Source: an uncultured Cytophagaceae bacterium (GTDB lineage Bacteria; Bacteroidota; Bacteroidia; Cytophagales; Microscillaceae). From it: DNA of 64,000 nt. Both the position numbers and the translations under genes were made by a program. Each line of letters opens with the position of its first letter. The stretch's first letter is position 1. This document shows positions 16,248 through 54,219 of the stretch, one piece after another. The stretch is from assembly GCA_964551015.1 (NCBI GenBank), contig CAZKBP010000003.1:85327-149326 (forward strand), read 5' to 3'. The notes below the pieces were generated by a model. The model had not been told where the DNA came from. It did no database searches and worked only from the letters and a program-made list of their open reading frames with translations.

Positions 16248-16262
16248 GTAAACAACATAGTA

Positions 16263-17153
16263 TTGATGACTCAACAACTTGAAATATTCCCTTCGGAGAA
16301 CCCCAATTCTCAGAAAGAAAATAGTAAAAAAGTAGTTAATGTAGCCTCTGTTCCTCAGCGGAGTCCCTTCCGTTATCCAGGAGGAAAGACTTGGTTTGTT
16401 CCTTTTTTCAGGCAGTGGATGAGCCAATTCCAAGCTCAGGAAATACAATTGATAGAGCCATTTGCTGGAGGGGGAATCGTAAGCTTAACCACAGCTTTTG
16501 AAAATTTAGCCAAACAGATCATCATGGCAGAACTAGACGAAGAGGTAGCAGCAGTCTGGCAGACTATCTTAAGCGAAGAAAACGAGTGGTTAGCAAAAGC
16601 GATTTATCACTTCGAACTCAATCTGGCAAACGTCCAATCTGAGCTAGCCAAGCCCAATAAATCTGTAAAAGAAAAAGCCTTCTGTACCATTCTCAAAAAC
16701 CGGATTCTACACGGGGGGATTCTAGCAAAAGGCTCGGGTCTTATCAAAAAAGGAGAAAATGGGAAAGGGCTTTCTTCTCGTTGGTATCCCAAGACATTGA
16801 GAGACCGTATTCTGGCGATCAATCAGGTCCATCATAAGATGGAGTTTACTAAGGCAGATGCCTTTGATGTCATTGTACAACACAGAGATAACCTTCAAGC
16901 TGTTTTCTTTATCGATCCCCCTTACACCGTAGCAGGCCGAAGATTATATACACACTTCGAGATTGACCATGAGAAGCTCTTCCGAGCCCTGCGTCAAATC
17001 GAAGGATATTTCCTAATGACCTATGATGATACCGAGGAAGTAAGAGCTTGGGCCGAAAAATACGAATTTCCCTATCAATCTATCCCCATGAAAACTACAC
17101 ATCATCGCCAGAAGTACGAATTGGTTATTTCAAACAAATTCACTACAAATTGA
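16263..17153 (+). CDS. DNA N6-adenine methyltransferase, Dam/D12 class
   Basis: SPFRYPGGKTWFVPFF (Dam FxGxG/AdoMet motif), IEPFAGGGIVSL, and FFIDPPYTVA (DPPY catalytic motif IV), in the Dam-family order. Confidence 0.85.
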   Translation: MMTQQLEIFPSENPNSQKENSKKVVNVASVPQRSPFRYPGGKTWFVPFFRQWMSQFQAQEIQLIEPFAGGGIVSLTTAFENLAKQIIMAELDEEVAAVWQTILSEENEWLAKAIYHFELNLANVQSELAKPNKSVKEKAFCTILKNRILHGGILAKGSGLIKKGENGKGLSSRWYPKTLRDRILAINQVHHKMEFTKADAFDVIVQHRDNLQAVFFIDPPYTVAGRRLYTHFEIDHEKLFRALRQIEGYFLMTYDDTEEVRAWAEKYEFPYQSIPMKTTHHRQKYELVISNKFTTN

Positions 17154-18094: not shown

Positions 18095-21000
18095 ATGCTA
18101 GGGAATATTATCGCTAAAATACTAGCGGGCTCGGTAGTAGGATACGTAACCAATTATCTGGCGATTCAAATGCTGTTTAAAGAGTATTTGAAAATTCGCT
18201 GGAAACGCCCTAAGATTCGCTTTGGCCTCGGTGGTGTCATCGTCAAAGAACGCAAGGAGTTCGAGGCACAAATCTCTCGCTTAGTCGAGAGCGACGTGAT
18301 TCACCACCAAGCTGTGGAGGCCGAACTCAAAAAAGCCAATTTCGAGCAGGCTCTGCAACAAATCCTGCAAAATCTCTTTCAAAAGCAACTGCCTCAGGTC
18401 GTTTCGTCTGATTTGAAGTTACAAGATATTCCCTGCTTGGAAAGTTCTTTTCAGCAAGTCAAAACCCGTTTGGTTCACTCGCTTGAACAGTCATCTCATC
18501 GTTTTTATAAGCCTGTACTGGCGCAGAGTCCTGTATTGGATATGCTCTCTGATCCACAGATTGAGTACATGGCAGGGCAAACGACGCAGCTACTCCAGAA
18601 CTTCCTCGAAGAAGAACCACTGATAGATCAACTTTTTCAAGGTTGGTTACGAGATTTGAGTCAGCATCGCTTTTCTGATTTTATGCCTGCTTCCCTCTGG
18701 CAGAGTTTGGGTCAAAATATAGATACATTTAGTGAGAATTTGCATCAATCTCTCAGGTACAATTATGCCCCGCAGATTGATGACGTTTTAGAAAAATCGC
18801 AGGAATCTCTGGCGACAGCCCAATTGATTCAAAAACTCTCTCATCAAGTGGCCGACCGTAAGCTCTACGAAATTTTTTCACAAGAAAATGTAGATAACGT
18901 ACCCAAGGCTATTTTGGGCAATATCCAAAATTTGTTTCAATCTGATGTCAGTGAAGATATTATCCAAACTTTGCTTCGGTTCTTGCTCAATGTGCTCAAA
19001 GAAGAAAATGCCACGGTCTATGAGCTACTTTCGGATGATCTGAAGCAAAACTTTGAGCGCTTCTTAGAAAATAAGCTTCCCGATATACTCGCTACTCTGA
19101 TTCCTTGGATTAGGCAAAAAAAGAAACGTCTAGAGCAGCTCATTCAGGATAGCTTCCGCGAAAACACTTCTTCCATCGGGCAATTGCTTGTCGCTATATT
19201 TATCGGGAATATTGGAAAATATATCGGGATTGAGCAGAAACTAATTGACCTAATCGAAAAGCAAGATGTGCAAGAATTGGCTAAGAAAGCTTCTGATTAC
19301 TTGCAGGAATATTTACGGAAAAATACCATCGGTGATCTGATTAAACGCTTCCAAGAAGATCGGATTCTACAAACCCTGACGCCCGTTTTACAACAAAATA
19401 TTGAAAAGGCCATTCAAAACCTTCGCTTGGACGGTACCATTCATAATCTCTTTGACAAACCCGTGCGCACTTGGTTTTCAGAAGAGCGAATCGCGCAGGC
19501 TCTGAATCATTTGTTGGATCAAGCCTTGCATCGCCATCTTAAAGAAAACTGGATTTTTACCGAAAAATCCACACGGTTTTTTCAAGAAAAACTCCGCAAC
19601 CGTTGGGAAGATTTACTGAATACGCCGCTCCAAAAATGGCTGCCCGCTGATAAACAAGCAAAAATGAGCGAGAATTTATTAGCAGAAATTCAAACCTACC
19701 TGCTTGGAAATCAAGAAGAAATTCAACGTTTTTTTGCCCGAACCCTAGAAAAATATCTCCAAGAAAAGCACTGGGATACGCTGATCCGACCCGATAGTGA
19801 GCAACTGAAAAATTTAGTGCAAACGGGACTTGAGCAGCTTTTAGATCGGCAATTTGCTCGGGTCAAAGAGAAACCTTTGCACGATTACATTCAGCAGGTA
19901 AATCAAATTCCGGGTTTAGATGAGCAATTGAGCCGATCCATTAAAGCGTATTTGCTCGAGCATTTACCCCAATTGATGGAAGGACGCATCGAGCAATTGG
20001 TCAAAGAAAATTTAGCCAAGCAGCCCGACACGCGTCTACGGGATATGGTACACAAGGCCATGGGAGAAGAGCTAAGGCCATTGAGTTTTTTTGGTGGTTT
20101 TCTGGGTACAATTACGGGTGCTTTGCTCTTGGGCATACCCGAAATGGACGCGGCGGCGGCTACCTTGGCCGTGTCGGGAATCGCCTATGGCATCACGGGC
20201 TGGGGAACCAACTGGCTGGCTATCAAGATGCTGTTTCGACCTTATAATCCAGTCAAAATTTTTGGCACCAAGCAAAATCTGCCTTTCACCCCCGGCGTGG
20301 TAGCCAAGCATAAAGCGCGCTTTGCTAAGAGTATGGGGCGGTTTTTGGGAGATCGCTTACTGAATCAGGAAAATCTCCAAGAAAATTTCGCAAAAAATCA
20401 ACCCAAACTCGAGCAAGGCTTCCGAGAGCTATTTTCCAAAGATGATTATGCTTTTATCCAAAAAAATCTGAGCCAGAATCAGGAGAAATTAGCCCAACAG
20501 CTCACCGAAAGTTTATGCAAATACCTAGATCAAAACTCCGCCCAACTTGCCCAAAACTTAGCTCAGGGAATCGAGGAATATCAAGGCCAAGATTTGCGTA
20601 AGCTAGATAGTAGTCGCTTGGAAAAACGACTGCTAGATTATCTGGATTCTCAGGAAGTTAGAGTCAATTTAGCGAATTTTCTTTCAGAGCAAATTCAGAA
20701 AGCCCGACAAAGCAAGCAATCACTTCAAGAGGTGCTACCCAAGCAACTATTGGAAAATATTTCCCAGAGCTTGACCAAACTGGTGGAGCAGGAAATTATT
20801 CGCCTCGAAGATCGCCTCGAGAATCAGGACATCCTAGAACTACTAGACTCACAGATATTGGAAGAGCGTATCGCGGGTTTTCTTGAAAATAATTTGGAAG
20901 AAATCCTGAACCGAGAACAGGAAGATAAGCTCAAAGAGCAGATTTTTGATTTCTTGAAAAATCGGGTTACCAGCGATGATGTCAAAAAACGGATTTATGG

Positions 21001-22246
21001 CTTTATTGATGATAAACTCAAGGATGAATTTGCTCCCGGCAAAAATATCAAAGACTTCTTTGGCGGACGGTTGATGGAATTGCTCGAGAAAAATCTCAAT
21101 CAAATCTTGGAGCGCGTGATTCAGATGGCCATCAATTGGCTCCAAGCCAATAAAGAAAAGATCGCCAATCAAGTCTATGAGGATGCTTATGCCCAAAATA
21201 GCCTCGCCTGGACTTATAAAAACTCCATCAAAGCCACTACTCAAGATTTGATCGAGCGAGGAGTTCCTAATTTTCTGAAAACCGAGTTTGGAAGTTTGGA
21301 AGAGATGATCCACGAAAAAGTGCAAGAGGTTGGAAATTCTCCCTTTAATACCACTAATTTTATCGCCTTAGATAGCGATAGCCTCAAGCGTCGCGTGGAG
21401 CAAATCTTGACCAACACCAAATTATTGCGCAAAACTCGGCAATTGACCAACCTGATATTAGAAGAACGCATTTTCAAAATCCGCTTGAACGCTCTGTTCA
21501 AGGATGATCCACATCAATTGATGCTGCATCTCAAAACCCTGCTTGATCCAGAGATTCATGTGATCCAAGACCACCTCCGAGAGCGACTACACGATGAAAA
21601 TCAATTGAAGGCATTTAGCCAGCCGCTGGCGCACTTGCTCAACGAAGTATTAGAGCGAGAGTTTTTAGGAATCAAGGCCGCCCGTGTTTTGGCAACGGTC
21701 GACCAAGAAGAAGCCCAGCAACTCTGCCAGCAGTTAGTAGAAAAGGTATTGGATGCCCCCGTTTTACAAACTCAGAGAGCGCAGATTCTCCAAAGGGCCA
21801 TGGATCGCTTTAAGAGCCAAAAATTAGAAGAAATATTAGATATAGCATTACTTCAGAAAGACCTGCCCAAAGCCTTTGAGCAAGCCTTTGCTCACCCCCA
21901 AGTTAGGGCACAGAGTCAAGAGGCCATTCAAGCATTGTTGGAGACATTGACTGGCCATTTGAATCAAGATTTATCACCAGAGACGAAGGATTTTACCATT
22001 GATATGGCCGCCAAGGCTATTTTTGGGGCTTTGGAAACACATATTCTCACCCTGATTAACTCCATTAATTTTAAAGAAATCGTGGTGGGCGAGATCGAGA
22101 CGATGCATGCCCAGGAGCTGGAAAATTTGTTCTATGGTTTTGCTCGTAAATACTTCAAATATTTGATTGGTTATGGCTTTGTCTTCGGGATTATTTTCGG
22201 CCTGGCGATTGATTTTGGGCTTTTGAATTTATTAGATATTTTTTAG
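18095..22246 (+). CDS. Giant tandem-DUF445 membrane-anchored coiled-coil protein (1383 aa)
   Basis: Two copies of the DUF445 N-terminal signature (GYVTNYLAIQMLFKEY at aa 16-31; GWGTNWLAIKMLFRPYNPVKIFG at aa ~697). Each is followed by a ~650-aa Q/L/E-rich helical region and a G-rich C-terminal hydrophobic segment (FFGGFLGTITGALLLGI; GYGFVFGIIFGLAI). Confidence 0.65.
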   Translation: MLGNIIAKILAGSVVGYVTNYLAIQMLFKEYLKIRWKRPKIRFGLGGVIVKERKEFEAQISRLVESDVIHHQAVEAELKKANFEQALQQILQNLFQKQLPQVVSSDLKLQDIPCLESSFQQVKTRLVHSLEQSSHRFYKPVLAQSPVLDMLSDPQIEYMAGQTTQLLQNFLEEEPLIDQLFQGWLRDLSQHRFSDFMPASLWQSLGQNIDTFSENLHQSLRYNYAPQIDDVLEKSQESLATAQLIQKLSHQVADRKLYEIFSQENVDNVPKAILGNIQNLFQSDVSEDIIQTLLRFLLNVLKEENATVYELLSDDLKQNFERFLENKLPDILATLIPWIRQKKKRLEQLIQDSFRENTSSIGQLLVAIFIGNIGKYIGIEQKLIDLIEKQDVQELAKKASDYLQEYLRKNTIGDLIKRFQEDRILQTLTPVLQQNIEKAIQNLRLDGTIHNLFDKPVRTWFSEERIAQALNHLLDQALHRHLKENWIFTEKSTRFFQEKLRNRWEDLLNTPLQKWLPADKQAKMSENLLAEIQTYLLGNQEEIQRFFARTLEKYLQEKHWDTLIRPDSEQLKNLVQTGLEQLLDRQFARVKEKPLHDYIQQVNQIPGLDEQLSRSIKAYLLEHLPQLMEGRIEQLVKENLAKQPDTRLRDMVHKAMGEELRPLSFFGGFLGTITGALLLGIPEMDAAAATLAVSGIAYGITGWGTNWLAIKMLFRPYNPVKIFGTKQNLPFTPGVVAKHKARFAKSMGRFLGDRLLNQENLQENFAKNQPKLEQGFRELFSKDDYAFIQKNLSQNQEKLAQQLTESLCKYLDQNSAQLAQNLAQGIEEYQGQDLRKLDSSRLEKRLLDYLDSQEVRVNLANFLSEQIQKARQSKQSLQEVLPKQLLENISQSLTKLVEQEIIRLEDRLENQDILELLDSQILEERIAGFLENNLEEILNREQEDKLKEQIFDFLKNRVTSDDVKKRIYGFIDDKLKDEFAPGKNIKDFFGGRLMELLEKNLNQILERVIQMAINWLQANKEKIANQVYEDAYAQNSLAWTYKNSIKATTQDLIERGVPNFLKTEFGSLEEMIHEKVQEVGNSPFNTTNFIALDSDSLKRRVEQILTNTKLLRKTRQLTNLILEERIFKIRLNALFKDDPHQLMLHLKTLLDPEIHVIQDHLRERLHDENQLKAFSQPLAHLLNEVLEREFLGIKAARVLATVDQEEAQQLCQQLVEKVLDAPVLQTQRAQILQRAMDRFKSQKLEEILDIALLQKDLPKAFEQAFAHPQVRAQSQEAIQALLETLTGHLNQDLSPETKDFTIDMAAKAIFGALETHILTLINSINFKEIVVGEIETMHAQELENLFYGFARKYFKYLIGYGFVFGIIFGLAIDFGLLNLLDIF

Positions 22247-22526: not shown

Positions 22527-23099
22527 ATGCTTAATTTTAAAGAAGTTATTTCCGTATCCTTGGTGCTTTTTTCGGTCATTGACATCATAGGTTCTATTCC
22601 TATTATCATCGAGCTTCGACAAAAATCAGGTCATATTCAATCAGAAAAAGCAACCCTGGTAGCGGGCTTGATTATGTTTGTCTTTTTGTATCTGGGAGAG
22701 TCTATTCTGAAATTGTTCGGCTTGGATGTAGCCTCATTTGCCATCGCGGGAGCCTTGGTATTGTTATTTATTGGTTTGGAAATGGTATTAGGGATTCACT
22801 TATTTCATAATGAGCCACAAAGCTCAGGCAACTCCAGCTCAATCGTGCCTTTGGCTTTTCCTTTGATCGCAGGAGCAGGAACGATGACCACGATTATTTC
22901 TTTGAGAGCTGAGTATCAGCAGGTAAATGTATTAATTGGTATTCTGCTCAATTTAGTTTTAGTGTATGTCGTTTTGAAAACTTCTAATTGGATAGAGAGA
23001 AAAATTGGTCAGGCAGGTACGGAGGTATTGCGAAAGGTCTTTGGGGTAATCTTATTGGCGATTGCCGTGAAATTATTTAAAGTAAATCTGACTTTTTAA
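22527..23099 (+). CDS. MarC family (UPF0056) integral membrane protein
   Basis: 190 aa, 6 TM, with typical MarC N-terminus FSVIDIIGSIPIII. Confidence 0.75.
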   Translation: MLNFKEVISVSLVLFSVIDIIGSIPIIIELRQKSGHIQSEKATLVAGLIMFVFLYLGESILKLFGLDVASFAIAGALVLLFIGLEMVLGIHLFHNEPQSSGNSSSIVPLAFPLIAGAGTMTTIISLRAEYQQVNVLIGILLNLVLVYVVLKTSNWIERKIGQAGTEVLRKVFGVILLAIAVKLFKVNLTF

Positions 23100-23156
23100 C
23101 GAAAATTAAGAGCTGAGAAGGTAAGCCTCTCACTTGTCGGGAAGAATTGTGTTATT

Positions 23157-23199
23157 CATCGGAGGCTCCGGAGAAGTACTCGTGGAGCCGTCCGATGAA
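23157..23199. terminator. Long imperfect hairpin (TCATCGGAGGCTCC...GGAGCCGTCCGATGA) between convergent genes
   Basis: Seen in the sequence. No strong U-tract on either strand. Confidence 0.4.
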
Positions 23200-23206
23200 T
23201 ATCAAA

Positions 23207-25417
23207 CTAGATCAAATCAGGTATTTTTAGCCCTAGCACCACCACGTCGTCGGTTTGGTCATGCTCTCCTTTCCATTGATTAAATTCCTGACTGAAGATT
23301 TCTTCTTGTTGATCCATAGGGTATTGACTGCTGTGCTGGATGAGTTCGATAAAACGGGTTTTCATGTATTTTTTCCGCTTCTGCTCGGAATCGTGATTAC
23401 CCCCTAATTGATCTTGAAAACCATCCGAAACGAGATAAAAGCTTTCTCCCCCTTGTAAATCAATGTATTTGTTTTTGAACTCTTTATTCTTGTTCCTGAG
23501 TGTACTCCCGATGGAAATATTTGAGCCTTTGATGTAGAAAATTTCCCCGTCCCGCACGTAATAGAGAGGATTCTTGGCTCCGGCAAAAACTGCTTTTTTC
23601 TCTCTTAGATTGATCCTGAGCAAGGCCATGTCCATACCATCTCCATCCCGCCGATTGCCTTCTTTTTCTTGATTATTGGTTTTTAGAGTAGCTTTCACCC
23701 GGTCGTTGAGAACGGTCAAAATCTCGGCTGGATCCAAAATATTATCCTCATTGACAATATTATTGAGCAGAGAGTTACCCATTACGGTCATAAAAGCCCC
23801 GGGTACGCCGTGTCCCGTACAGTCGGCGGCGGTGATGACAATATCATCTTCTTTTTGAGTATGCCAATAAAAATCTCCGGATACAATATCTTTGGGGGCA
23901 TAAAAGATAAACATCTCAGCAAAATTCTCCGAGATTTGCTCAATACTAGGTAAGATGGACTGTTGAATCGTGAAAGCGTAACGGATACTATCGGTGATTT
24001 TCTCGTTTTGAGTTTTGAGTTGATTATTTTTGGACTCGATTTGGCGGTTTTTCTGATCCATGATGATCGCGGATTGCTCGAGCATTTGATTTTTGTCGTC
24101 AAGCATTTGATTCTTTTCATCGAGCATCTCGTTTTTCTCAGCTAGCTGATCTTTTTGCTGACGGACGCGCCGGTTATTGATGTAAAGAATCGCGGCGATA
24201 GCCACCGCAGCACTACCTACTAGTATGAAAATAAGGAGGTTACGGTTGGCAATATCTTCTTTTCTCTTGGCAATTTCGGCCAATAAGCTGGCATTTTTCT
24301 TGGCTAACTGGAGAGAGTCTTTGACCTCTTGCGTGGCTTGTCTTTCTTGCAGCACATCTCTTTGTAATACCAGAATCAGGCTCAAAGCTTTTTCTTTGGC
24401 GATGTCTAGGTCTTTTTGGTATTTGGTAAATTCTTCCTCTAGTTGCTTCAATCGCGCCACTAATCTTTTTCTTTCTTCGGGGCTAATCGGCTCATCTCCT
24501 TCCAAAATCTTTCGAATTTCTTCTCGTTCGCGCGTATTTTCTCCCAGTCTTTTTTCCACAAAACGGACTTCACTAAAAATGGCTTCTCGTTGGTCATCGA
24601 TAATGGTAACTGGCCCTTGATCTAGGGGTTCATCTTGGGAGAGTGGCTCTCGCACCGAGATAAGCATCATGTTGATTCCCGTGTAATTGAGGTTGGTAAC
24701 ATTGTACCCCTCGACGGCATACTGGCTAAAGTCATAGGCTTCCCCTCCTGTGCTGAACTCTCCATTTTCGTTGGTAGTATAAGGCTTATTATCTACATAC
24801 ACGCGCGCATCGGCAACGGGCTGATTGGATGGATCGACAATTTTGACTCGGAAAACTTTACGGGGGGGCACATCTAACAAGACATAGAAAAGACCGTCTT
24901 TCTTGCGGACAATATAGTTATGGCTACTTTTGAGGCGAGGGTCAAAAACTTTAAAATCTGTGGTATCTACTTCTACTCCTTCGGGAACATTGAAGGAAAA
25001 AAAGCCTTGGGCATCCGTTTTGACTGGAGCTAAACCCCTGACCCCAATGATGAGTACGTTGACGCCTGGCAAGGGCACTTGCTTATCACTGAGAACTCTG
25101 CCTCGAATTTGTGTAGGAGGAGTCATGACAATTTTTACCTCTTTCCCATCGTAGCGCCAATCTTGGAGCATCATCCCTTCTTTATTAGCGTTGATAAATT
25201 TGGGGCCATCGGTGGTAATATTGCTCACCGAAAACTCACCGCTGGCACTGGTGTAGACATATTGGCTACCATCTACAGATACCTTCGCGTTTTGGACGGG
25301 CTGAGATTTTTGGTCTACGACTTTTCCTTTGATGGCTTTCTGCGCTGGACAAACCAGAGGTAAGCATATAAAAGACCATAAGACTATCAAGAAGGATAGC
25401 CGGGCTTCCCTTTTCAT
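23207..25417 (-). CDS. Single-pass membrane sensor PP2C-type (SpoIIE/RsbU-like) Ser/Thr phosphatase, paralog A. Extracytoplasmic CarboxypepD_reg-like repeats
   Basis: Signal peptide, then three beta-sandwich repeats (IKGKVVDQKSQPVQNAKVSV; QIRGRVLSDKQVPLPGVNVLI; FRVKIVDPSNQPVADARVYV). Coiled coil, a TM helix LLIFILVGSAAVAIAAILYI, and a C-terminal SpoIIE domain (ITDSIRYAFTIQ..., DIVSGDFYWH, ADCTGHGVPGAFMT, GMDMAL, SDGFQDQ) follow. The ATG for MKREARL is at 25417. The track ORF begins at a TTG 27 nt upstream. Confidence 0.8.
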   Translation of the reverse strand: MKREARLSFLIVLWSFICLPLVCPAQKAIKGKVVDQKSQPVQNAKVSVDGSQYVYTSASGEFSVSNITTDGPKFINANKEGMMLQDWRYDGKEVKIVMTPPTQIRGRVLSDKQVPLPGVNVLIIGVRGLAPVKTDAQGFFSFNVPEGVEVDTTDFKVFDPRLKSSHNYIVRKKDGLFYVLLDVPPRKVFRVKIVDPSNQPVADARVYVDNKPYTTNENGEFSTGGEAYDFSQYAVEGYNVTNLNYTGINMMLISVREPLSQDEPLDQGPVTIIDDQREAIFSEVRFVEKRLGENTREREEIRKILEGDEPISPEERKRLVARLKQLEEEFTKYQKDLDIAKEKALSLILVLQRDVLQERQATQEVKDSLQLAKKNASLLAEIAKRKEDIANRNLLIFILVGSAAVAIAAILYINNRRVRQQKDQLAEKNEMLDEKNQMLDDKNQMLEQSAIIMDQKNRQIESKNNQLKTQNEKITDSIRYAFTIQQSILPSIEQISENFAEMFIFYAPKDIVSGDFYWHTQKEDDIVITAADCTGHGVPGAFMTVMGNSLLNNIVNEDNILDPAEILTVLNDRVKATLKTNNQEKEGNRRDGDGMDMALLRINLREKKAVFAGAKNPLYYVRDGEIFYIKGSNISIGSTLRNKNKEFKNKYIDLQGGESFYLVSDGFQDQLGGNHDSEQKRKKYMKTRFIELIQHSSQYPMDQQEEIFSQEFNQWKGEHDQTDDVVVLGLKIPDLI

Positions 25418-25702
25418 ATAGATTATATTGCTGGAAACTCTCAATCTGGAACTAATAAATTTTGGTACGATTTTACTTTTAAGTAGTTGTCCATCCTGAG
25501 TGCTTGGGGTGAGCCTCTATTTCAGGGCTTGATCGCCAAATTTCCCCAGTATTTTAATGTCCAAGTACCTAAAATTAGGCTTAATATCTTTGTATGCCAT
25601 TTTTATACCAAAAAATTAGTAAAAAGTATTCTCTGGTATAAGTATGGGCAATATATAGAGAAGTTTGTGGATTTCCTATGCTTCGGCTCGGGTTACCGAT
25701 GG

Positions 25703-27583
25703 CTACAGTTTGATACCAACTATCGTGATATCATCCCGAGAGCGGGTATCCTGCCGATGCGCTTTGAGGGTGTCGAGTAATAGTGTTTTTTGCTCAGACA
25801 GGGGATAAGATTGGATTTGATCCAGTAAATCTTGAAAACGGGCACTGCCAAACTTTTTTCGCTCTGGATCGGGCGAGTCAATGTAACCATCTGTGGTCAG
25901 GTAGAGAATCGAGCCCTTGGGGAGGCGCACTTGATGATTGGTAAAAGCTTGTATGTGCTGACGAATACCACCGATGTATTTGCTATCACCCGAGAATTTT
26001 TTGAGAGTTTGATTTTCGGTATAATAAAATGGGCGTTTGGCTCCGGCAAAAGTAACATCAAAGTGATCTTCACCTGCTTTTTGGATTGTGCAGAAACAAA
26101 CATCCATGCCATCACGGTTATTTGTTTCACCTTGACGAAGTCTTTTGTAAACACCTTGATGGAGCATTTCTAGGACAGAAGAAGGGTCAGTTATGTGTTT
26201 TTCGTTGACGATTTCGTTGAGCAAATCCGTGCCAATAGTAGACATAAAAGCCCCGGGCACACCGTGCCCCGTACAGTCTACCACGGCGATCAGGGTTTTA
26301 TCCTCAGAGCGATTGAGCCAATAAAAATCACCAGAAACAATATCTTTGGGGCGGTAAATGATAAAATGTTCATCAAAAAAGCTTGAGAAGCGGCCATCCT
26401 CAGGAAGCATCGCCTCTTGAATGGTCAAAGCGTAGCGAATACTGTCGGTGATTTTGCGATTTTGTTCTTCGAGGGCAGAGTTTTTATCTTTGATCTCCCT
26501 GTTTTTCTGATCCATGATGCGGGTAGATTCTTCCAAGAGATCATTTTGGCGATTAATTTCCGTGATTTTCTCTGTGAGTTCATTGCGGGCTTTGCGAATT
26601 TCCTCAATTCTTTTTTTGCGCCGCTGGCTGTAATAGTAAAGCATAAAGGCCAATGAGCTTAGGAAGATGATAATAGCCGTGAGGATGGTAAGTTGAGTCC
26701 TCTGGTTGGCAGCCGCGGCTTCTTTTTCTTTTTCTACCTTGGCTTTCTCGAGTTTTTCTCGGGCTACAATTTCCTTGGCCAGTTTGGCCTCTGTCAAAAG
26801 TTTGCTGGTGATTAGGCTGTCTTGGCTGACTTGGTCGCGGAGTGTGCGAATACGCTCAATGAGTTCCTTTTCTTCTTCTGGTTTCAGCCCTAATTCTTTA
26901 ATTCTGAGGGCTTGTTCTTCGCGAATTTCACTAAGTTGTTGTTTATATTCGTTCAGTTTGCGTTTAGCCTTCGGATCTTCTACATATTTGATCTCGGTGG
27001 TTTTCTCTATCTTGGTAATGGTTTTGGGGGGAGGAGGGGGAGGAGCCAGCTTGATTTTTTCATAAGCCTCATCCAAGATTTTAAGAGCGACAGAGATTCC
27101 TTTATCGTCAATTTGTTCAGGAACAATTTCATAAAGCCAGCGATCAATCGGCTTTACAAAATTAATATCACTACCACCGGGAGTCGCATATCCTTCTTTT
27201 TCGGTGATGATTAAGATCGGTTTATTGGCTACTTTCTGAAATACACCACTGATGAGTAATCGGCTCGTGCTGCTAATATAGAGGATGGGGCATTGCTCTA
27301 TTTCGTTGATGCTGGTGAAATGCTTTACGACGATTTTCTTGTTTTTTACCTGTTGGTTGGTCAATACGGAGCTAATTTCGTCTACGGTAGAGGCATCCCC
27401 GATGATTCCCACTACAAAATCGTGCCCGATCGCATAACTAGGCCAAACCAAGTTTCGAGCAAAACGATTGATGTAGTTGGCTTTGATTTTAAGATCATCT
27501 TGGTTCTGAGCCTGACCTTTTGGGCACAAAACCAGCCAGACGACTATCCATCTTGCCATAAATTTTAAAAACATCCTCTTCAT
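25703..27583 (-). CDS. Single-pass membrane sensor PP2C-type (SpoIIE-like) phosphatase, paralog B. Extracytoplasmic DUF4154/YfiR-like domain
   Basis: The N-terminal periplasmic domain (VVGIIGDASTVDEISSVL...ILYISSTSRL) resembles YfiR/DUF4154. A poly-Pro linker, a TM helix LTILTAIIIFLSSLAFMLYYY and a SpoIIE domain (ITDSIRYALTIQ, DIVSGDFYWL, VDCTGHGVPGAFMS, TDGYIDS) follow. Confidence 0.8.
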   Translation of the reverse strand: MKRMFLKFMARWIVVWLVLCPKGQAQNQDDLKIKANYINRFARNLVWPSYAIGHDFVVGIIGDASTVDEISSVLTNQQVKNKKIVVKHFTSINEIEQCPILYISSTSRLLISGVFQKVANKPILIITEKEGYATPGGSDINFVKPIDRWLYEIVPEQIDDKGISVALKILDEAYEKIKLAPPPPPPKTITKIEKTTEIKYVEDPKAKRKLNEYKQQLSEIREEQALRIKELGLKPEEEKELIERIRTLRDQVSQDSLITSKLLTEAKLAKEIVAREKLEKAKVEKEKEAAAANQRTQLTILTAIIIFLSSLAFMLYYYSQRRKKRIEEIRKARNELTEKITEINRQNDLLEESTRIMDQKNREIKDKNSALEEQNRKITDSIRYALTIQEAMLPEDGRFSSFFDEHFIIYRPKDIVSGDFYWLNRSEDKTLIAVVDCTGHGVPGAFMSTIGTDLLNEIVNEKHITDPSSVLEMLHQGVYKRLRQGETNNRDGMDVCFCTIQKAGEDHFDVTFAGAKRPFYYTENQTLKKFSGDSKYIGGIRQHIQAFTNHQVRLPKGSILYLTTDGYIDSPDPERKKFGSARFQDLLDQIQSYPLSEQKTLLLDTLKAHRQDTRSRDDITIVGIKL

Positions 27584-27787
27584 AGATTCTTCATAATTGC
27601 CTAAGGACTTGGTGTGAATGATCCTTAGAATCTTTTACCGTTGAAAATCTGTGAGATACCAGACTGGACGACAGACGCTGGACAATTGTCCAAGGATTAG
27701 GCAGTACTGCAATTTATAAAATCCATTTCTTTTATGATCAACAAAAGCTCGATTTATACCTGTGCTCTGGTAGTAAACTATTTATTT

Positions 27788-30007
27788 TTAAAGTTTAATC
27801 CCCATCACTAACACATCGTCAGTCTGAGAATTCTCCCCTTTCCAAGTTCTAAATTCTTTTTCTAGGGCTTGACATTGCTCAGACAAGGGTAAGGAGCTAA
27901 TTTCTAAAAGGAAGTCTTTGTATCTTGTTTTCATGTATTTTTTTCGGTTTTTTACTTCGCCTCCAAATTGATCCTGAAAGCCATCCGACTGTAAGTAAAA
28001 AACCTCTCCTCCTTCTATTTCTATTTCGTGAGATTTAAACTGATGGTTTTTCTTAAATTTAGTACTACCAATCGGGATATTTGTTCCTTTAATCTGATGT
28101 AGGACGTTATTTTTGACGTAATAAAGAGGGTTTTTAGCTCCAGCAAATATCACTTTCTGGGTGTAGCGATTGATATTAATCAAAGTCATATCCATTCCGT
28201 CGTGGCTGGTATCTCGTTCTTGTTGATGGAGGGTTTCTTGCACCTTGGCATCCAGCAGCGTCAGAATCTCAGATGGCTCTGTGATATAATTTTCATTGAC
28301 AATTTGGTTCAACAAAGAATTGCCCAACATAGTCATAAATGCCCCCGGTACGCCGTGCCCCGTGCAATCAACCGCCGCGATGATGGTTTCAGCCCCCTTA
28401 TGGCTATACCAATAAAAATCTCCACTCACGATATCACGTGGTGCGAAGAAGATAAAGCCATCATTAACATGGCGCATGATCTCCTGTGGCTTGTCCAAGA
28501 TCGCGTTTTGGATTCGTTCAGCACTATAAATACTGGATCTGATTTGATTATAAGTCCGCTCCAGTTCTTTGGTTTTTTGGCTTAGCGAATCTCTCTGTAC
28601 CTTGATCTCTTCGTTTTGCTGATGTATTTCTTCTACCTTTTCGGCGAGTTGATCTTTGGTAATTTCTATTTCGCTTTTTTGCTTTTTAATAACACGATTG
28701 TAAAGGAAGAAGGTCGTGGCGAGAATGAGTAAAAGCACGATGATCGTGGAGAGAATGATTAGGTTGTCTCGAAAGCGAGATTCGGCTCTTTCCTTTTCTT
28801 CTTGAATTTGCTGTTTCTCAGATTCTACTTCCTTGACTTTTTGTTCGGCAACGAGCCGGAGTGAATCTTTTTGAAAGATGATAGATTCTAAGGCACTTAA
28901 TTCCAAACGGGACTCCTGCCGTAACTGCTCGAAGAGAGAGTCATTTTCGTGGAAAGTCTGTGTGAGTTCGCTGACATAGCCATGTAAGGCGTTTCTTTGC
29001 TGAGGGGTAAAATTAGCCTTATTGAGTAGGCGATTGCTCAATTGGCGAAGTTCTCTTTGAAAACGTGCCGAACGGGTAATCTGCTCCTCGCGATCTTCGC
29101 GTAACTCCTCCGTGATTTTATTGATATCATCCTGTATACTAGGCTGATTAGCATTGGGCAATGGAACTTTTACAGGAGATTGAGTCGCCTTAGTCCCTTG
29201 CTCTTCTACTTGGAAGGTAAAACGGTTTTCTCCTTCTTTGAAATCTGATTGGAGAATACGATAACCTTGCACTTGTACGGCACTATCACCACTCAAAACC
29301 TCCGGAGAAATCTTAAGATCTCCTTGGCCATTGGCCCGATAGCTTTGTCCACTGATACGAAGACTGGCGTTAGGTACAGGTTGACCCTGACGATTTCTGA
29401 CAGAGATAAGATAAGTGCTGGGCTGAGGAGAAGTAGAGCTGGGTTCCAACCTGATGATAACCGAGGTAGCATTTTGTTTGAACATCACCTGACCGGGTGG
29501 GATAGGATTCCCATTTACTTGAAAATGGCTATTACTTCCTACCTGTGTCTGTGGTGAAAGTTGGATTTCAAATCTTCCATTTGCATCGGTTACCACAGGT
29601 TTTTGATCATTCTGCCCCAAGAGTACGATCTTATTGTTGGCTAATGCCTGTTTATCATGATGAACCAACACCCCCCGAAGAATAGTAGCAGGCTGCATCA
29701 AAATGACCAGTCTGGGACTTGTCTTAATTTCTTTGATTTTTAGATTTCTACGTCGAGGATCATAGATTCGGATATCACTAACTTGCAAGGGGCGATTAGG
29801 TTGTGCGAGTTCAAATTTGAAGCGACCGTTGTAATCAGTGGTGGTTACTGTACTACCACGAACCGAAATCTGAAGATTTGACACGGGTTTGTTAGCTTCA
29901 TCGACAATCGTTCCAAAAGTAGACTTTTGTGCCAGAAGCAACATGGGACTCATTAGGACGAGCCACGCGAAGAGCAATATGCTGGATTTGGTGCTTATTT
30001 TCATCAC
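27788..30007 (-). CDS. Single-pass membrane sensor PP2C-type (SpoIIE-like) phosphatase, paralog C. Extracytoplasmic beta-sandwich repeats
   Basis: Signal peptide, CarboxypepD_reg-like repeats (FGTIVDEANKPVSNLQISVRGS; LRGVLVHHDKQALANNKIVLLG), coiled coil, a TM helix LIILSTIIVLLLILATTFFLY, and a SpoIIE domain (DIVSGDFYWY, VDCTGHGVPGAFMT, SDGFQDQ). Confidence 0.8.
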   Translation of the reverse strand: MMKISTKSSILLFAWLVLMSPMLLLAQKSTFGTIVDEANKPVSNLQISVRGSTVTTTDYNGRFKFELAQPNRPLQVSDIRIYDPRRRNLKIKEIKTSPRLVILMQPATILRGVLVHHDKQALANNKIVLLGQNDQKPVVTDANGRFEIQLSPQTQVGSNSHFQVNGNPIPPGQVMFKQNATSVIIRLEPSSTSPQPSTYLISVRNRQGQPVPNASLRISGQSYRANGQGDLKISPEVLSGDSAVQVQGYRILQSDFKEGENRFTFQVEEQGTKATQSPVKVPLPNANQPSIQDDINKITEELREDREEQITRSARFQRELRQLSNRLLNKANFTPQQRNALHGYVSELTQTFHENDSLFEQLRQESRLELSALESIIFQKDSLRLVAEQKVKEVESEKQQIQEEKERAESRFRDNLIILSTIIVLLLILATTFFLYNRVIKKQKSEIEITKDQLAEKVEEIHQQNEEIKVQRDSLSQKTKELERTYNQIRSSIYSAERIQNAILDKPQEIMRHVNDGFIFFAPRDIVSGDFYWYSHKGAETIIAAVDCTGHGVPGAFMTMLGNSLLNQIVNENYITEPSEILTLLDAKVQETLHQQERDTSHDGMDMTLININRYTQKVIFAGAKNPLYYVKNNVLHQIKGTNIPIGSTKFKKNHQFKSHEIEIEGGEVFYLQSDGFQDQFGGEVKNRKKYMKTRYKDFLLEISSLPLSEQCQALEKEFRTWKGENSQTDDVLVMGIKL

Positions 30008-30282
30008 GGAAGAAAAGAGGCATTAATCTGCCAAGTATTAGTCAAACTGTTACTATTATCATACCAAAACTACGCCAAAGCATAAATTATCTCCAAAGAA
30101 GGATGGAAGCCACTCAGCAGCAGTGAGGAGAAGGCGAGGGAAATTGTACAAGAAGTGCTGTCCAAAAAAGGGAATTTAGTTCTAAAATGGGAGCCGAAAG
30201 GCCGACAACTCTTCCATTATAAATAACATCCAGTAAGATCATGCCCCGTCCGAGATAAACTTTCTTACATTTATAGAGAGAA

Positions 30283-30305
30283 AATTTCGATTATAAATCG
30301 AATTT
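30283..30305. promoter_or_regulatory. Imperfect 23-bp palindrome AATTTCGATT-ATA-AATCGAATTT, a candidate dimeric-regulator operator about 230 bp upstream of the MoxR-like operon
   Basis: 10-bp inverted arms with one mismatch and a 3-bp spacer, seen directly. Confidence 0.35.
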
Positions 30306-30456
30306 ATTAACTTACAATAAGAAGTTAATCTATCAGTTGAGTTGTTCTTTTTTGAAAAACATCACGAAGCTTCAAATCAGCTCAATTAGCAAAGCAGAGA
30401 CACCTGACCATCATTGGATTTATTAAATTCTAATTTTTTACACTACCCAAACTACT

Positions 30457-30477
30457 TTGAGGGGTATATACCCTCAA
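30457..30477. promoter_or_regulatory. Near-perfect palindrome TTGAGGG-GTATATA-CCCTCAA immediately upstream of the MoxR-like gene
   Basis: 7-bp perfect inverted arms around a TATATA core, 55-75 bp upstream of the ATG at 30532. Confidence 0.4.
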
Positions 30478-30531
30478 GGTGGTGGAGTTCGTAAGCCAAG
30501 CCGATTTAAAATTAATCATTCTCTTGCCCAT

Positions 30532-31500
30532 ATGAGTATCTTTGGGATTGCTACTTCTGATTTGATTCAGCCCAGATATGAGGCTAATCCTGCGCATTAC
30601 ACTCCTAGTGAGGAACTTAGCATGGCGGTCAAAGTGGCCATCAAGCTCAAACAACCGCTTTTATTAACTGGAGAACCTGGCACTGGAAAAACCCAGTTGG
30701 CTTATGCCATTGCTTATGATTTGCACCGACATCATCCAGATTTTCTAGCAGACCCTTTAGTATTTCACACCAAAACTACCTCTCAGGCCAGCGATCTTTT
30801 CTATACCTATGATGCAGTGCGGCATTTTCACGATGCGAATATCAAGAAAATAGAAGAAAAAGCATTAAATCCTATTTCCGACTACATTCAGTTACAAGCT
30901 CTAGGTCAGGCCATTGCCATGAGTAATCCCCGTGAAGTAATTCGGGGAGATTATGTCCCCAAGGCACTATCGGGAGCGAAGAGTTCTGTGGTACTTATTG
31001 ATGAAATTGACAAGGCTCCCCGAGATTTTCCCAATGATATTCTCCACGAAATAGAAAATTTTGAATTTGAGATTCAAGAAGCGGATCATTATCGGATTCG
31101 CAGAGGAGAAGAAAAGCAAATCATTGTCATTATGACCAGTAATTCTGAGAAAAATCTCCCCGATGCTTTTCTGCGACGCTGTGTTTTTTTTCATATTCCT
31201 TTTCCTGACGAGAGGCAACTGTTGGAAATCGTGCGCAAGCAGCCCTGGAACGATGTGCGCTATGCCAGTGAAGAACTGATCGCGCATTTTCTCGAGATTC
31301 GGGAACTGATTAAAAAGAAAAAGCCTGCTACCTCCGAGCTACTCACTTGGCTGAGAATTTTAGAATTAGAAGGTTTTTTAGAAGAAGGCTTTTCGTGGCA
31401 GGAACTCAAAAGCCGAAAGCAAGAAGTGCTGCGTTACAGCTATTCGGTATTAGCCAAAACCAGTGAAGATTTGATGACAATTAAACATAAACTCTATTAA
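30532..31500 (+). CDS. AAA+ ATPase, MoxR-like
   Basis: Walker A LLLTGEPGTGKTQLAYAIA, Walker B VVLIDEIDKAPRD, and sensor region IVIMTSNSEKNLPDAFLRRCVFF. Start is taken at the ATG (MSIFGIATSD). The TTG at 30457 in the track lies inside the palindrome. Confidence 0.75.
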   Translation: MSIFGIATSDLIQPRYEANPAHYTPSEELSMAVKVAIKLKQPLLLTGEPGTGKTQLAYAIAYDLHRHHPDFLADPLVFHTKTTSQASDLFYTYDAVRHFHDANIKKIEEKALNPISDYIQLQALGQAIAMSNPREVIRGDYVPKALSGAKSSVVLIDEIDKAPRDFPNDILHEIENFEFEIQEADHYRIRRGEEKQIIVIMTSNSEKNLPDAFLRRCVFFHIPFPDERQLLEIVRKQPWNDVRYASEELIAHFLEIRELIKKKKPATSELLTWLRILELEGFLEEGFSWQELKSRKQEVLRYSYSVLAKTSEDLMTIKHKLY

Positions 31501-31575
31501 ATTTTTTGCTAAACCCTGATTCCAAGATAGAAAATACTCACTAATCCTAAAAGCAAAGGATAAAGCAATTGCCTT

Positions 31576-34500
31576 ATGGAAAAAATCAAACTACCCCTCG
31601 ATAAGCTTCTTCTCAAACTAGAAAAAGAGGGATTTTATCTCGATCACCATACGCGCCTACGCCTGCAAAAGACTCTCCATGCTTTCGGACCAGAGCTAGC
31701 TCAACAGCCCGAGAAATTGAAAGCAGTTCTATCCCCCATTCTAGCCAAGAATCAACTCGAGCAGGAGCGGTTTTATCAATGCTTCGATGAATATTATCAG
31801 GAAATCATCGCCAGCCCACCAGAGGCAGATAGGGAAACCCTGCCCCAGCGATCTACTTCATTGGGAGACTTATTGGCTTTGGCCTTATCTATTTTGCTGG
31901 TATTTATCGTTTCTTTCTGGACTTCCGAGCCCAAGCCCCAACCTCAAGCTAGCCATGAAGACAAATCGCTGGATTCACTCGAACTAGCACCCAAACCCCA
32001 GCCTGTGCCGCTTGCTCCCAGCGATTCTCATCAGGAAGCAGTTCAAAATCAGGAAATCAAAATCGAGCTGAATAAATTTGCTCGGGCTGGAGAAACTTTG
32101 AAAATCTATAACAAAACGCTTCACCGCGAACAATGGGATTTTATATGGAACTTTGGGACAAGCTCCAAAAGAGATGTCAATTTAACCAACAATGCCTCTA
32201 CCGTAGAACATACTTATTTCAAAGCTGGAACCTACCATATCCAACTCACCGCGCGTCATAAGCATACGCACGAAGAAAAAATTATTACCCAGCGCGTGTA
32301 TGTGGATTATGATGGCAAACCGATTCTCGCCATCGAGCCACAAAAAGTCTACGCGGGCGATACGGTGATATTTAGTGATTATTCGCCATTTGCCGAAGAA
32401 TCTTTCCTCACGATTCACGGGGAACCTTATCCGACTACGGTTCAATTTCTAGGAGCGCATCGGAGCTATCAATATGTTTACGAGCAACCTGGTTATTATG
32501 CTGTTGAGCTAAAAGTCTTCCAAAAGGGTGAGGTATTGCGTCGTCGTGCCTCCATTGAGGTATTAGATAAGAAAACGACCCCTCCTCTGGTGATTAATAC
32601 CACCCAAGAGGCGAGCCAAGACCAGTTACTTTCGTCCGCAGAGCAGGAAGCGTTGGAAGAAGTTCAGAACAATACGTATAGGTTTTTCACGGCACGTTTT
32701 TATCTGTTTTGTCTGGGCACTTTCGTGCTAATTTGGGGGCTGATAGAATTAGCACTGCAGGTTTATCGGAGAGGCTCGAGAAGCAATCCCGTGGCGATTT
32801 CAAGTGCTAATCACTTGGCGAGTTTATCGCAGTTTCCGAAGGAAAGCCCTTTTTTGGTGGATAAATCTATCTACACGGCCGCCCAAGCATTGAAAAAACG
32901 AAAAATTACTACTACTTCCAAGCTGAATATGAAGGCCAGTATTCGAGCCACCTCTCAAAAAGGTGGGCTTCCGCAGTTGTTATTCGCGCATCAACCACAA
33001 AGTCGTGAATATCTTATTTTGATAGATCGCTCGGTGCGTCATCGTCAGCAAACGCGCTGGTTTGAGCATTTGATTGATCTTCTAAAAAAAGAAGAAGTAG
33101 CGATTGAGAAATATTATTTTGAGCGGCTACCAAATGTATGGTATACCTCTCCTACTTCAGAAGGCAGGGCGGCCGATACCTTGATGGGGCAATATCAGCA
33201 CCATACGCTCTTGATCTTTGCCGAGGGAGAAGCTTGGGTCAATGCCGATTCCAGTCAGTGGCAGGAGTGGGCAAAAAATTTTCTGGAACATTGGCCAGAG
33301 AAGGTCTGGATGAGTCCAAAGTTGCTGACCGAATGGGGAACAACCGAAAGAGTTTTAGAAAGCCTCTGTCCGCTCTTACCGGCACACGAAGCCGGACAAT
33401 CACTACTTGTGGAGGCACTGACCGAGTCTCAGCCCAGAAACTTTTGGGAATTGAAAGAAAACTTGGAAAAAGCACTACAGGGAGAGGCAATGGGTTCTAT
33501 TGATTCCGATAGAAAAGAACTCACGAAAGCTCATACAGCTGCAAATACCTCCTTTGATCTTGAGCAATTAACCTATTATCTAGAAGATACGAACAAGCCT
33601 TTTACCACCAATCAAGCAATTTACCTAGAAAAATCGCCTCTTGTAGCTTGGGTTTGTGCCTTGGCCGTTTATCCTTATCCTAATTGGACAATGACCGTCG
33701 AGATTGGTCAAAAAATACAAGCCAAATTAGGTCTTAAAGTCTTGGTCAACTCCGAAAACCTACTGAAACTAAGCAGTCTTCCTTGGTTCAATGAACCACG
33801 TCTGCCTGAACACATTGAACAAGCACTACTCCGAGAACTCAGCCAGATGCCCCCAGAAATTGAGCAGGCCGCCCGCGAAGCCGTGTTGGAAGTGATCGAG
33901 AGAGAAGAAAAGAAAGCCGAGAAAAACACTTCGCAAAGTCGGCATTGGCAAGTACAAAGAACCATTCAAGAAGCCCTGCTCGACCCAGTAGACCGACAAG
34001 CTTGGCGCAAATTGCGAAAGTGGTCTGATTTGAAATGGATTGACAGTGAAGTCTTGAACCGAAGTATTCAAGAGCGCTTCCGCTGGCGGTATTATCTGCC
34101 TTGGCTGCGCTTGGCCGTGGGGCTTTTGGTGGGTTTTGCCCTGCTACCGCAAAGTCCAGAAAATACCGTATTTGCCGATTCTTGGTCGCAAACCTTAGGA
34201 CTGATTGAGCTAGAGATAGACGAAACCCCCACCCCACAAGCCGCCAAAATCATCGAGTATGATGCCAACTATAAAATTCATACCCTCGATCCAATCCGTG
34301 TGCAGACCCAGGAGGAGAAAGAAATCGTGGGTTTAGTATACGAAACGCCCATGACTCTGGATGAGGGCGGAGGCTTGGTTGCTTCTTTATTTTCCAAGGT
34401 TGAGCAGCACGAGGGGGTATGGACATTTTGGTTAGCTCCGGGCACCTATTTTCACGATCATCCCGCTTTTTTTCAAGGAAGGGGAAGGGAGATCAACGCA

Positions 34501-37967: not shown

Positions 37968-38000
37968 CATACTTAGCGAAATAAAATACGAGCAAATCTG

Positions 38001-53969: not shown

Positions 53970-54219
53970 GGTAGTAGAAGTAGATAATATTCTGGAAAAG
54001 TGTGGTAGATTATGCTTCTCAAAAAACAAGCTATTTCCTAAAGATTTCGTGTTTTTAATCCGAAGATTTTCTCTGCCAGGTCTGGCTGTTGTGTATGATA
54101 CAAACTTGGAGAGTTTTGCAAAGAAAAATTTGACAATTTCCTTTTTTGATGCGAATATGCATACGAAAGTAAAAAAAAAATCTCAAAACATAGGAGTTTT
54201 CCCTCAAAATTCTAGATAA

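Follow-up and report, generated by a model that had tools for sequence, protein, structure and literature searches.

Three adjacent genes of a Microscillaceae bacterium predicted to encode SiaA-like receptor phosphatases with different extracytoplasmic sensors

Three co-oriented genes, here called A, B and C, lie side by side on the minus strand of a 64,000-nucleotide stretch of DNA from an uncultured Cytophagaceae bacterium of the family Microscillaceae (assembly GCA_964551015.1, contig CAZKBP010000003.1, positions 85,327 to 149,326); the whole of this stretch is referred to below as the window. Each gene encodes an extracytoplasmic sensor that is joined through a stalk, one transmembrane helix and a coiled-coil linker to a PP2C phosphatase domain, which by sequence and model comparison belongs to the SiaA subfamily and not to the RsbU/SpoIIE type. 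The best overall explanation, which is considered probable, is that A, B and C are SiaA-like receptor phosphatases, probably dimeric, that pass signals to a SiaC-family switch protein. A preliminary description of this DNA, made from the letters alone, was right about the genes, their domains and the lack of local partner genes, and wrong about one motif in C, the place of that motif and a neighbouring MoxR operon. Its interpretation holds as far as paralogous sensor phosphatases with differing sensors are concerned; a tandem expansion by sensor shuffling, partners of the STAS type and a link to MoxR do not hold. The genes and the parts of their products are as follows.

Gene A: 23207..25417, minus strand, 736 amino acids (aa) from the likely start ATG 25417
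A, signal peptide: residues 1-25
A, three CarboxypepD_reg-like sandwiches: residues 26-270, 24608-25342, minus strand (Pfam)
A, helical stalk: residues 271-391
A, transmembrane helix: residues 394-413, 24179-24238, minus strand
A, heptad linker: residues 414-472, 24002-24178, minus strand
A, SiaA-like PP2C domain: residues 473-736, 23210-24001, minus strand (Pfam SpoIIE; match to 6K4E)
Gene B: 25703..27583, minus strand, 626 aa, likely start ATG 27583
B, signal peptide: residues 1-25
B, YfiR-like DUF4154 sensor: residues 26-178, 27050-27508, minus strand (Pfam, NCBIfam, Foldseek)
B, poly-proline segment: residues 179-186, 27026-27049, minus strand
B, helical stalk: residues 187-295
B, transmembrane helix: residues 298-318, 26630-26692, minus strand
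B, heptad linker: residues 319-376, 26456-26629, minus strand
B, SiaA-like PP2C domain: residues 377-626, 25706-26455, minus strand (Pfam SpoIIE; match to 6K4E)
Gene C: 27788..30004, minus strand, 738 aa from the likely start ATG 30004
C, signal peptide: residues 1-25
C, beta-sandwich sensor: residues ~26-284, 29153-29929, minus strand (Pfam CarboxypepD_reg)
C, helical stalk: residues 285-412
C, transmembrane helix: residues 415-435, 28700-28762, minus strand
C, heptad linker: residues 436-486, 28547-28699, minus strand
C, SiaA-like PP2C domain: residues 487-738, 27791-28546, minus strand (Pfam SpoIIE; match to 6K4E)

The listing of open reading frames (ORFs) confirms three co-oriented minus-strand frames at 23207-30007, as had been described, and each frame is intact. 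A database protein of 736 aa (P0121) is identical to A and supports ATG 25417 as its start, and the database version of B (P0001) starts at M9. In all three proteins an N-terminal hydrophobic segment resembling a signal peptide ends in AQ followed by K or N. Each protein has a single further strongly hydrophobic segment, the transmembrane helix, with basic residues on its C-terminal side, and the N-terminal parts are therefore placed outside and the C-terminal parts in the cytoplasm. A, B and C are type-I (N-out, C-in) single-pass receptor phosphatases with a cleavable signal peptide.

That the common C-terminal module is a SpoIIE/PP2C phosphatase, as first proposed from motifs, agrees with the domain search: Pfam SpoIIE (PF07228) matches the C-termini of A, B and C with expectation values (E) of 2.3e-19, 5.3e-24 and 3.5e-21 and scores of 70.5, 85.7 and 76.4 bits, all above the gathering cutoff of 25. 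The motifs DIVSGDFYW and DCTGHGVPGAFM picked out beforehand are invariant in the three proteins, and a profile of the PP2C module run over the 64-kb window matches A, B and C and nothing else.

Within this broad family the relationship of the three domains is to SiaA (PA0172 of Pseudomonas aeruginosa; 6K4E; PMC7647112, PMC8457831), with ~33-40% identity over the linker and the domain. The NCBIfam model for the ‘biofilm regulation protein phosphatase SiaA’ (NF038263) matches all three at E ~1e-59 to 1e-61 (1.6e-59 for B), the match spanning linker and PP2C domain only, that is, profile positions ~343 to 657. In a sequence search of the PDB (phmmer) the SiaA-PP2C structure 6K4E is the sole significant match (E 1.3e-42 for A, 1.4e-38 for B and 1.4e-37 for C). 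An AlphaFold2 model of B, computed as a monomer from an alignment of 27 orthologs (mean predicted local distance difference test score 80.6; predicted TM-score, pTM, 0.45), likewise finds SiaA-PP2C as its best Foldseek match (E 1.3e-20, TMt 0.88), the next PP2C structures following at E ~1e-10 with a TMt of ~0.75 or less. Shared with SiaA are the motifs GDFY, DC[AT]GHGVPGA, FAGAK, (T/S)DGF/Y and DD, as well as the helix alpha1 motif K-I-x-D-S-[IL]-x-Y-A-x-x-I-Q-x-[AS]-I-L-P. This last motif had been described as a juxtamembrane helix, ITDSIRYA[F/L]TIQ, present in all three proteins. It is found so in A and B, and C has diverged (IRSSIYSAERIQ); it also lies 51-59 residues past the transmembrane helix, where it forms helix alpha1 of the PP2C domain and aligns with KIGDSLDYASLIQ of SiaA, in fuller form KIGDSLDYASLIQRAILP. 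Collectively, these comparisons place the phosphatase domains in the SiaA subfamily, not with RsbU/SpoIIE.

The crystal structure paper (PMC7647112) names D457, D474, G477, D600, G601 and D653 as the metal ligands of SiaA. In the alignment to 6K4E each of the six is matched by the same residue in all three proteins, within the GDFY, DCTGHG, (S/T)DG and DD motifs, and the enzymes therefore look active; by this measure the three are predicted to be catalytically intact PP2C phosphatases.

With regard to possible substrates, SiaC of the Pseudomonas SiaABCD system is a phospho-threonine switch protein that is dephosphorylated by SiaA and phosphorylated by SiaB (PMC7647112, PMC8457831). As with SiaA, relatives of A, B and C adjoin genes for SiaB-like proteins (DUF6272) and SiaC, one or both of which were found beside family members at loci L011, L023, L015/L016, L019, L020, L025, L051, L064, L081 and L082. 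For example, L019 has SiaC after a Bacteroidetes DUF4154-SpoIIE gene, the Microscillaceae arrays of L011 and L023 end with a DUF6272 gene, and SpoIIE genes occur together with SiaC in L020 and L025, the latter also with a SiaB-like gene. A Pfam scan of 83 small ORFs that lie no more than 1.5 kb from a family PP2C gene matches SiaC (8), DUF6272 (6) and Response_reg (4) most often; STAS, HATPase_c_2 and sigma factors are not among the families listed for these neighbours. In the SiaC proteins beside relatives the phospho-site context LxYxNTSS is conserved. Since SiaC and SiaB-like DUF6272 genes recur next to relatives, the likely substrate of A, B and C would be a SiaC-type protein encoded outside the window.

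The layout between sensor and phosphatase suggests how a signal might be passed on. A charged helical stalk of ~110-130 residues leads from each sensor to the transmembrane helix, and from there a linker of 51-59 residues, free of Pro and Gly and in a single heptad register, leads to helix alpha1, into which the register continues. In the three-way alignment the linker of C is exactly seven residues shorter than those of A and B. In the model of B the sensor (residues 26-175) is well folded, the poly-Pro tether (181-202) is disordered, one helix (235-336) passes straight through the membrane and a second helix (341-392) enters the PP2C domain. No HAMP domain is matched in A, B or C (Pfam), and in the model of B a plain helix occupies the place between membrane and phosphatase. 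In its crystal structure SiaA-PP2C is a homodimer formed through alpha1-alpha3 (PMC7647112), and for RsbU and related phosphatases, control of the PPM dimer through a coiled-coil linker has been described (PMC12143880). By analogy with these proteins, A, B and C appear to have the layout of a linker-controlled PPM dimer in transmembrane form.

On the favoured explanation, A, B and C would act as dimers in which the binding of an outside ligand or partner alters the geometry of linker and dimer, and hence phosphatase activity. The substrate would be a phospho-threonine on a partner-switch protein of the SiaC family (DUF1987), the kinase for which would be a SiaB-like (DUF6272) protein with its gene elsewhere in the genome, and different signals from the envelope or surface would reach one switch through the three receptors. 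The earlier suggestion of many inputs that feed one output remains a reasonable reading.

Several observations weigh against this explanation. The scores against NF038263 (~200-207 bits in A, B and C) fall far under the 700-bit equivalog cutoff. At the position of SiaA R652, the residue proposed for phosphothreonine contact, A and C have Thr, and the Arg is kept in B. No SiaB or SiaC gene was found in the 64-kb window by Pfam and NCBIfam scans, tblastn or SiaB and SiaC profiles, the scan for partners having covered nearly all non-overlapping ORFs of at least 70 aa. SiaB and/or SiaC are present at 7 of 80 metagenome loci with a family member, many of the contigs being short; these loci were collected by a metagenome scan that started from the alignment of the A orthogroup and used generic PP2C motifs as patterns, so that they hold generic family members in place of A orthologs. 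Dimerisation and signalling through the linker are proposed by analogy and from a monomer model with a pTM of 0.45, and the periodicity of linker length across 92 family members is noisy: length classes 0, 3 and 4 modulo 7 are enriched, with a fuzzy definition of the transmembrane end and near-identical orthologs dominating the sample, and the enrichment is not relied on. The weakest link is the proposed substrate, for which subfamily membership and the neighbourhoods of relatives provide the basis.

A, B and C are not equivalogs of SiaA, because they have no HAMP domain, a different topology, no adjacent siaBCD genes and a score under the cutoff. SiaA has two transmembrane helices and a HAMP domain, whereas A, B and C each have a signal peptide, a large outside sensor, a stalk, one transmembrane helix and a plain coiled-coil linker, and siaB, siaC and siaD do not adjoin them. 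The setting of SiaC differs as well: the SiaC genes of relatives stand beside a class III cyclase in Leptospira or a TerB-ABC transporter in Bacteroidota, not beside a GGDEF protein. In Leptospira gomenensis (L015:5465-13291; also L016) a gene for a 1786-aa PP2C protein is followed, in an operon-like row and in this order, by genes for a DUF6272 (SiaB-like) protein, SiaC and a GAF protein with a class III adenylate/guanylate cyclase domain. This row is a Sia-like module in which the cyclase replaces the diguanylate cyclase SiaD. At three Bacteroidota loci (L020:5619-8675, L025:7989-11054 and L026:6531-9596) a ~1020-aa protein with TerB, ABC_tran and ABC2_membrane domains is encoded beside DUF6272 and/or SiaC, and further SpoIIE phosphatase genes flank two of the three.

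Taken further, and as a tentative proposal only, the C-B-A array could be one input bank of a Bacteroidota Sia switch in which many receptors, one of them with a YfiR-like domain fused in cis, act on SiaB and SiaC encoded elsewhere and the output is not the synthesis of cyclic di-GMP (c-di-GMP). The TerB-ABC transporter encoded beside SiaB-SiaC at the three Bacteroidota loci may be a candidate for such a non-c-di-GMP output. On this proposal the three stalk-bearing receptors might also pair into mixed dimers. No experimental work on a Bacteroidota switch of this kind was found in the literature searched.

The main alternative is a classical switch of the RsbU/SpoIIE type, in which A, B and C would dephosphorylate a STAS anti-anti-sigma factor against an RsbW-like kinase and thereby govern an alternative sigma factor encoded elsewhere. 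The Pfam family is, after all, SpoIIE (PF07228), most characterised bacterial members of which act on STAS proteins (PMC11418112, PMC12143880), and in structure SiaC is itself a relative of STAS (PMC8457831). RsbU, RsbP and SpoIIE of Bacillus subtilis (PMC12143880) resemble A, B and C in that an alpha-helical linker connects an N-terminal regulatory module to a PPM domain at the C-terminus, and the linker-dependent control of dimers proposed for them would apply here too. However, the sensors of A, B and C are extracytoplasmic, genes of the RsbT, RsbV and RsbW type do not accompany them, and their substrates are probably not STAS proteins. The likeness of the B model to RsbU, RsbP and SpoIIE is at the level of the fold only (Foldseek E ~1e-9 to 1e-10), and no RsbU, RsbP, RsbX or SpoIIE chain appeared among PDB sequences at E of 5 or below in the search made with C, the one protein so searched, as against 1e-37 for SiaA. 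SiaC and DUF6272, moreover, head the families listed for small neighbours, among which STAS, HATPase_c_2 and sigma factors do not appear. Within the 64-kb window, Pfam and NCBIfam scans that covered nearly all non-overlapping ORFs of at least 70 aa yielded no STAS protein, RsbW-like anti-sigma kinase or sigma factor, just as the preliminary description had reported; its advice to look for such partners is not borne out by the neighbours of relatives, which are of the SiaB/SiaC type instead. An RsbU-type switch is accordingly judged rather unlikely.

Slightly less credence still is given to the view that A, B and C are Ser/Thr phosphatases with other targets, which would undo phosphorylation by Hanks-type kinases or else have response regulators or transporters, for instance, as their substrates, outside any partner switch. 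Consistent with this view, 73 of the 80 metagenome loci have no adjacent partner gene, Response_reg is the third commonest small neighbour (4 of 83) and A and C have no equivalent of SiaA R652. Against it stand the SpoIIE/SiaA type of the domain, since phosphatases of the PstP/Stp1 type, which pair with Hanks kinases, rank far lower in Foldseek, and the recurrent neighbours, which, where there are any, are SiaB or SiaC.

The assignment of A, B and C to SiaA rather than RsbU/SpoIIE points experimenters to SiaC (DUF1987) and SiaB-like DUF6272 partners, and its useful outcome is that ‘RsbU-like, STAS partners missing’ becomes ‘SiaA-like, SiaB/SiaC partners expected elsewhere’. The PP2C family in question has a very large membership (at least 8000 homologs) in Cytophagales and the rest of the Bacteroidota and is essentially uncharacterised experimentally there; A, B and C are ordinary new members of this very large, already annotated and experimentally unstudied family. 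The assignment suggests that Sia switching, so far described only from the biofilm and c-di-GMP pathway of Pseudomonas, may be widespread and may join many receptor inputs to outputs of various kinds.

The sensors differ among the three proteins as had been described, Pfam placing CarboxypepD_reg-like beta-sandwich repeats above the gathering score in both A and C. The CarboxypepD_reg family (PF13620, cutoff 32.3 bits) matches three stretches of A (E 1.5e-18, 67.4 bits) and two of C (E 3.5e-13, 50.1 bits), and the two sensors align weakly with each other (E 1e-8). Both sensors are taken to consist of three such sandwiches. An exhaustive search of cluster representatives with the sensor of A returned 10 at E of 1e-30 or below, mostly 711-747 aa long, and 62 at E of 1e-10 or below. 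SpoIIE was found in 7 of 10 matches scanned with Pfam, the other three being short (276-500 aa) and without it. The exhaustive search was adopted because a word-seeded one with the N-terminal half of A, dominated by coiled-coil words, had given three matches only. Among the matches listed for B (at least 8000 candidates), DUF4154-SpoIIE and CarboxypepD_reg-SpoIIE proteins are both frequent.

The YfiR/DUF4154-like domain and poly-proline linker claimed for B are likewise upheld, by the match to Pfam DUF4154 (PF13689, YfiR/HmsC; E 1.5e-19, 70.9 bits against a cutoff of 24.9) and by the sequence APPPPPPK. The NCBIfam YfiR_like model matches the sensor at E 4e-19 with 69 bits, under its equivalog cutoff of 125, and the sensor of the AlphaFold2 model matches the YfiR structure 4YN7 in Foldseek (E 2.5e-7, TMt 0.72). 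The sensor of B thus shares with YfiR of the YfiBNR system (4YN7, 4XJY; PMC4655355) its fold, its periplasmic location and its coupling to a signalling enzyme of the inner membrane. YfiR, however, acts in the periplasm as a free protein that represses the diguanylate cyclase YfiN, whereas the domain of B is fused in cis, by way of a poly-Pro tether and a stalk, to a phosphatase. The pairs Cys71-Cys110 and Cys145-Cys152 of YfiR, which serve stability and redox sensing (PMC4655355), are absent from B, whose mature sensor holds one Cys, and no invariant or nearly invariant Cys occurs in the B-type sensor among the 27 orthologs. Neither a YfiB-like (OmpA-like lipoprotein) nor a YfiN-like (GGDEF) gene lies near B, Pfam scans having found no GGDEF or YfiB-like gene in the window.

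Free YfiR-like DUF4154 genes (~180 aa) are found immediately upstream of SiaA-like PP2C receptor genes at L095:348-893 and L078:2665-3201, the former locus additionally with a SiaC fragment. These free genes correspond in trans to what B carries as a fused sensor, and their position beside phosphatase genes agrees with a functional coupling of the domain to the phosphatases.

Comparison with a second genome indicates that the array is old. The Microscillaceae metagenome-assembled genome (MAG) GCA_033765345.1 (locus L001) has one-to-one orthologs in the order C'-B'-A'-MarC, and the arrangement is the same in Logan contig L002. Full-length identity to these orthologs is 53% for A, 62% for B and 49% for C, and identity of the PP2C modules is 68-71% for each. 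Among the paralogs themselves, alignment bears out the shared module; full-length identity of ~32% speaks against a recent duplication, and PP2C identities are 52% (A-C), 41% (A-B) and 40% (B-C). A and C are paralogs that align collinearly from end to end. B falls in a different orthogroup, of DUF4154-SpoIIE proteins, and its PP2C domain is nearer to the solo proteins of this kind (63-71%) than to those of A and C. In a Cytophagales MAG (L007) the B-A pair is present and C is absent, and the B ortholog stands alone in more distant genomes (L003, L005, L008). Since paralog identities lie far below ortholog identities and B is solo elsewhere, the array is best described as an old, conserved juxtaposition, and the earlier notion of a tandem expansion with sensor-domain shuffling was overstated. 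All ORFs of the array are intact in both genomes compared, and the orthologs in L001 and L002 are intact and syntenic. By these sequence criteria, the C-B-A array is old and maintained, and nothing in it points to recent duplication, to gene conversion or to decay.

A tandem duplication of recent date with later exchange of sensor domains, the copies still diverging or else partly redundant or decaying, would account for genes that are adjacent, on one strand and alike in their C-terminal module, and is made highly improbable by the low identity of the paralogs, the ortholog of 49-62% identity that each gene has in the same order in another genome, the solo affinities of the B phosphatase domain, the intact ORFs and a DNA-level likeness among A, B and C of ~70% confined to short patches. 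The identities of orthologs against paralogs and the DNA comparison rule out gene conversion in the same way.

Divergence between the two genomes is greater in the sensors than in the PP2C modules, with sensor identities to the ortholog of 47% for A, 63% for B and 34% for C against 68-71% for PP2C; amino acid identities were used for this comparison, since synonymous sites are saturated at 49-62% amino acid identity. Other sensors of Cytophagales and Bacteroidota (Reg_prop/Y_Y_Y-, HAMP-GAF-, TPR- and 7TMR-DISM-SpoIIE) share the SiaA-like PP2C domain and the alpha1 motif and differ from A, B and C in their sensor domains. Those of the Reg_prop/Y_Y_Y and HAMP-GAF types also form three-gene tandem arrays in Microscillaceae. 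At L011:921-11704, L023:2789-13761 and L012:3408-13309 the order is Reg_prop/Y_Y_Y, HAMP-GAF, Reg_prop/Y_Y_Y, each array being preceded by a gene for a leucine-rich-repeat-like protein (recognised from sequence, not by Pfam). A SiaB-like gene and an arginase-family gene follow the array in two of the three loci (L011 and L023), and the SiaB-like gene is not found in L012.

The genes and signals that flank the array are as follows.

MarC-family membrane protein: 22527..23099, plus strand, convergent with A (Pfam MarC, 3.7e-37)
Inverted repeat TTCATCGGACGGCTCC...GGAGCCTCCGATGAA: 23150..23203, minus strand, between the stop of A and the convergent MarC gene (read from sequence)
C upstream region: 30005..30456, minus strand, shared with the divergent AAA gene; exact -7 box
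AAA ATPase, 347 aa: 30457-31500, plus strand, divergent from C; generic AAA/AAA_5, no AAA_3 match (Pfam)

MarC, which has a counterpart of 80% identity at the corresponding place in L001 and L002, is the only neighbour positionally conserved with the array. The array has a single exact Bacteroidota-type -7 box (TAnnTTTG; TAGTTTTG), placed 68 nucleotides upstream of the ATG start codon of C, and a TTTG stands another 21 nucleotides upstream of the box; at a background of 0.5 such boxes per kb per strand, the box within 30005..30456 is weak evidence. A pattern scan found no exact -7 box in the C-B (204-bp) and B-A (285-bp) gaps, and co-transcription of C, B and A is possible. The strong hairpin at 23150..23203 is the likely end of the transcript; a simple terminator scan, which needs a T-run, did not call it. 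A scan for sigma-70 promoters and terminators gave no more matches than shuffled sequence.

The AAA gene and the gene after it had been taken for a MoxR operon, with the array placed directly upstream and a possible functional link suggested, and this link is rejected. The gene is divergent from C and of the generic AAA/AAA_5 type, its best NCBIfam match being a weak one to the MadB family. The next gene encodes neither DUF58 nor VWA; it encodes a 1134-aa PKD and SBP_bac_5-like protein, the pair occupying 30457-34980 on the plus strand. The AAA gene is not conserved, being missing from the syntenic locus L001.

Elsewhere in the window, two plus-strand ORFs at 582-992 and 60454-60870 encode proteins of 136-138 aa with no Pfam family, the size of which fits small regulators; neither matches the SiaB or SiaC profiles. 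The plus-strand region 15411-17153 encodes a NotI-family restriction endonuclease followed by a D12-class N6-adenine DNA methyltransferase, a probable type II restriction-modification pair. Upstream of MarC, 18095-22246 (plus strand) encodes a 1383-aa protein with four DUF445 stretches, a neighbour also present in Logan contig L024. Two tandem paralogous proteins of 674 and 661 aa, each with DUF3857 and a transglutaminase core, are encoded at 35943-39986 (plus strand). Finally, 50217-54029 (minus strand) encodes a 1270-aa PKD/Calx-beta protein with a Por_Secre_tail domain, which therefore marks it as a cargo of type IX secretion and fits the Bacteroidota origin of the DNA.

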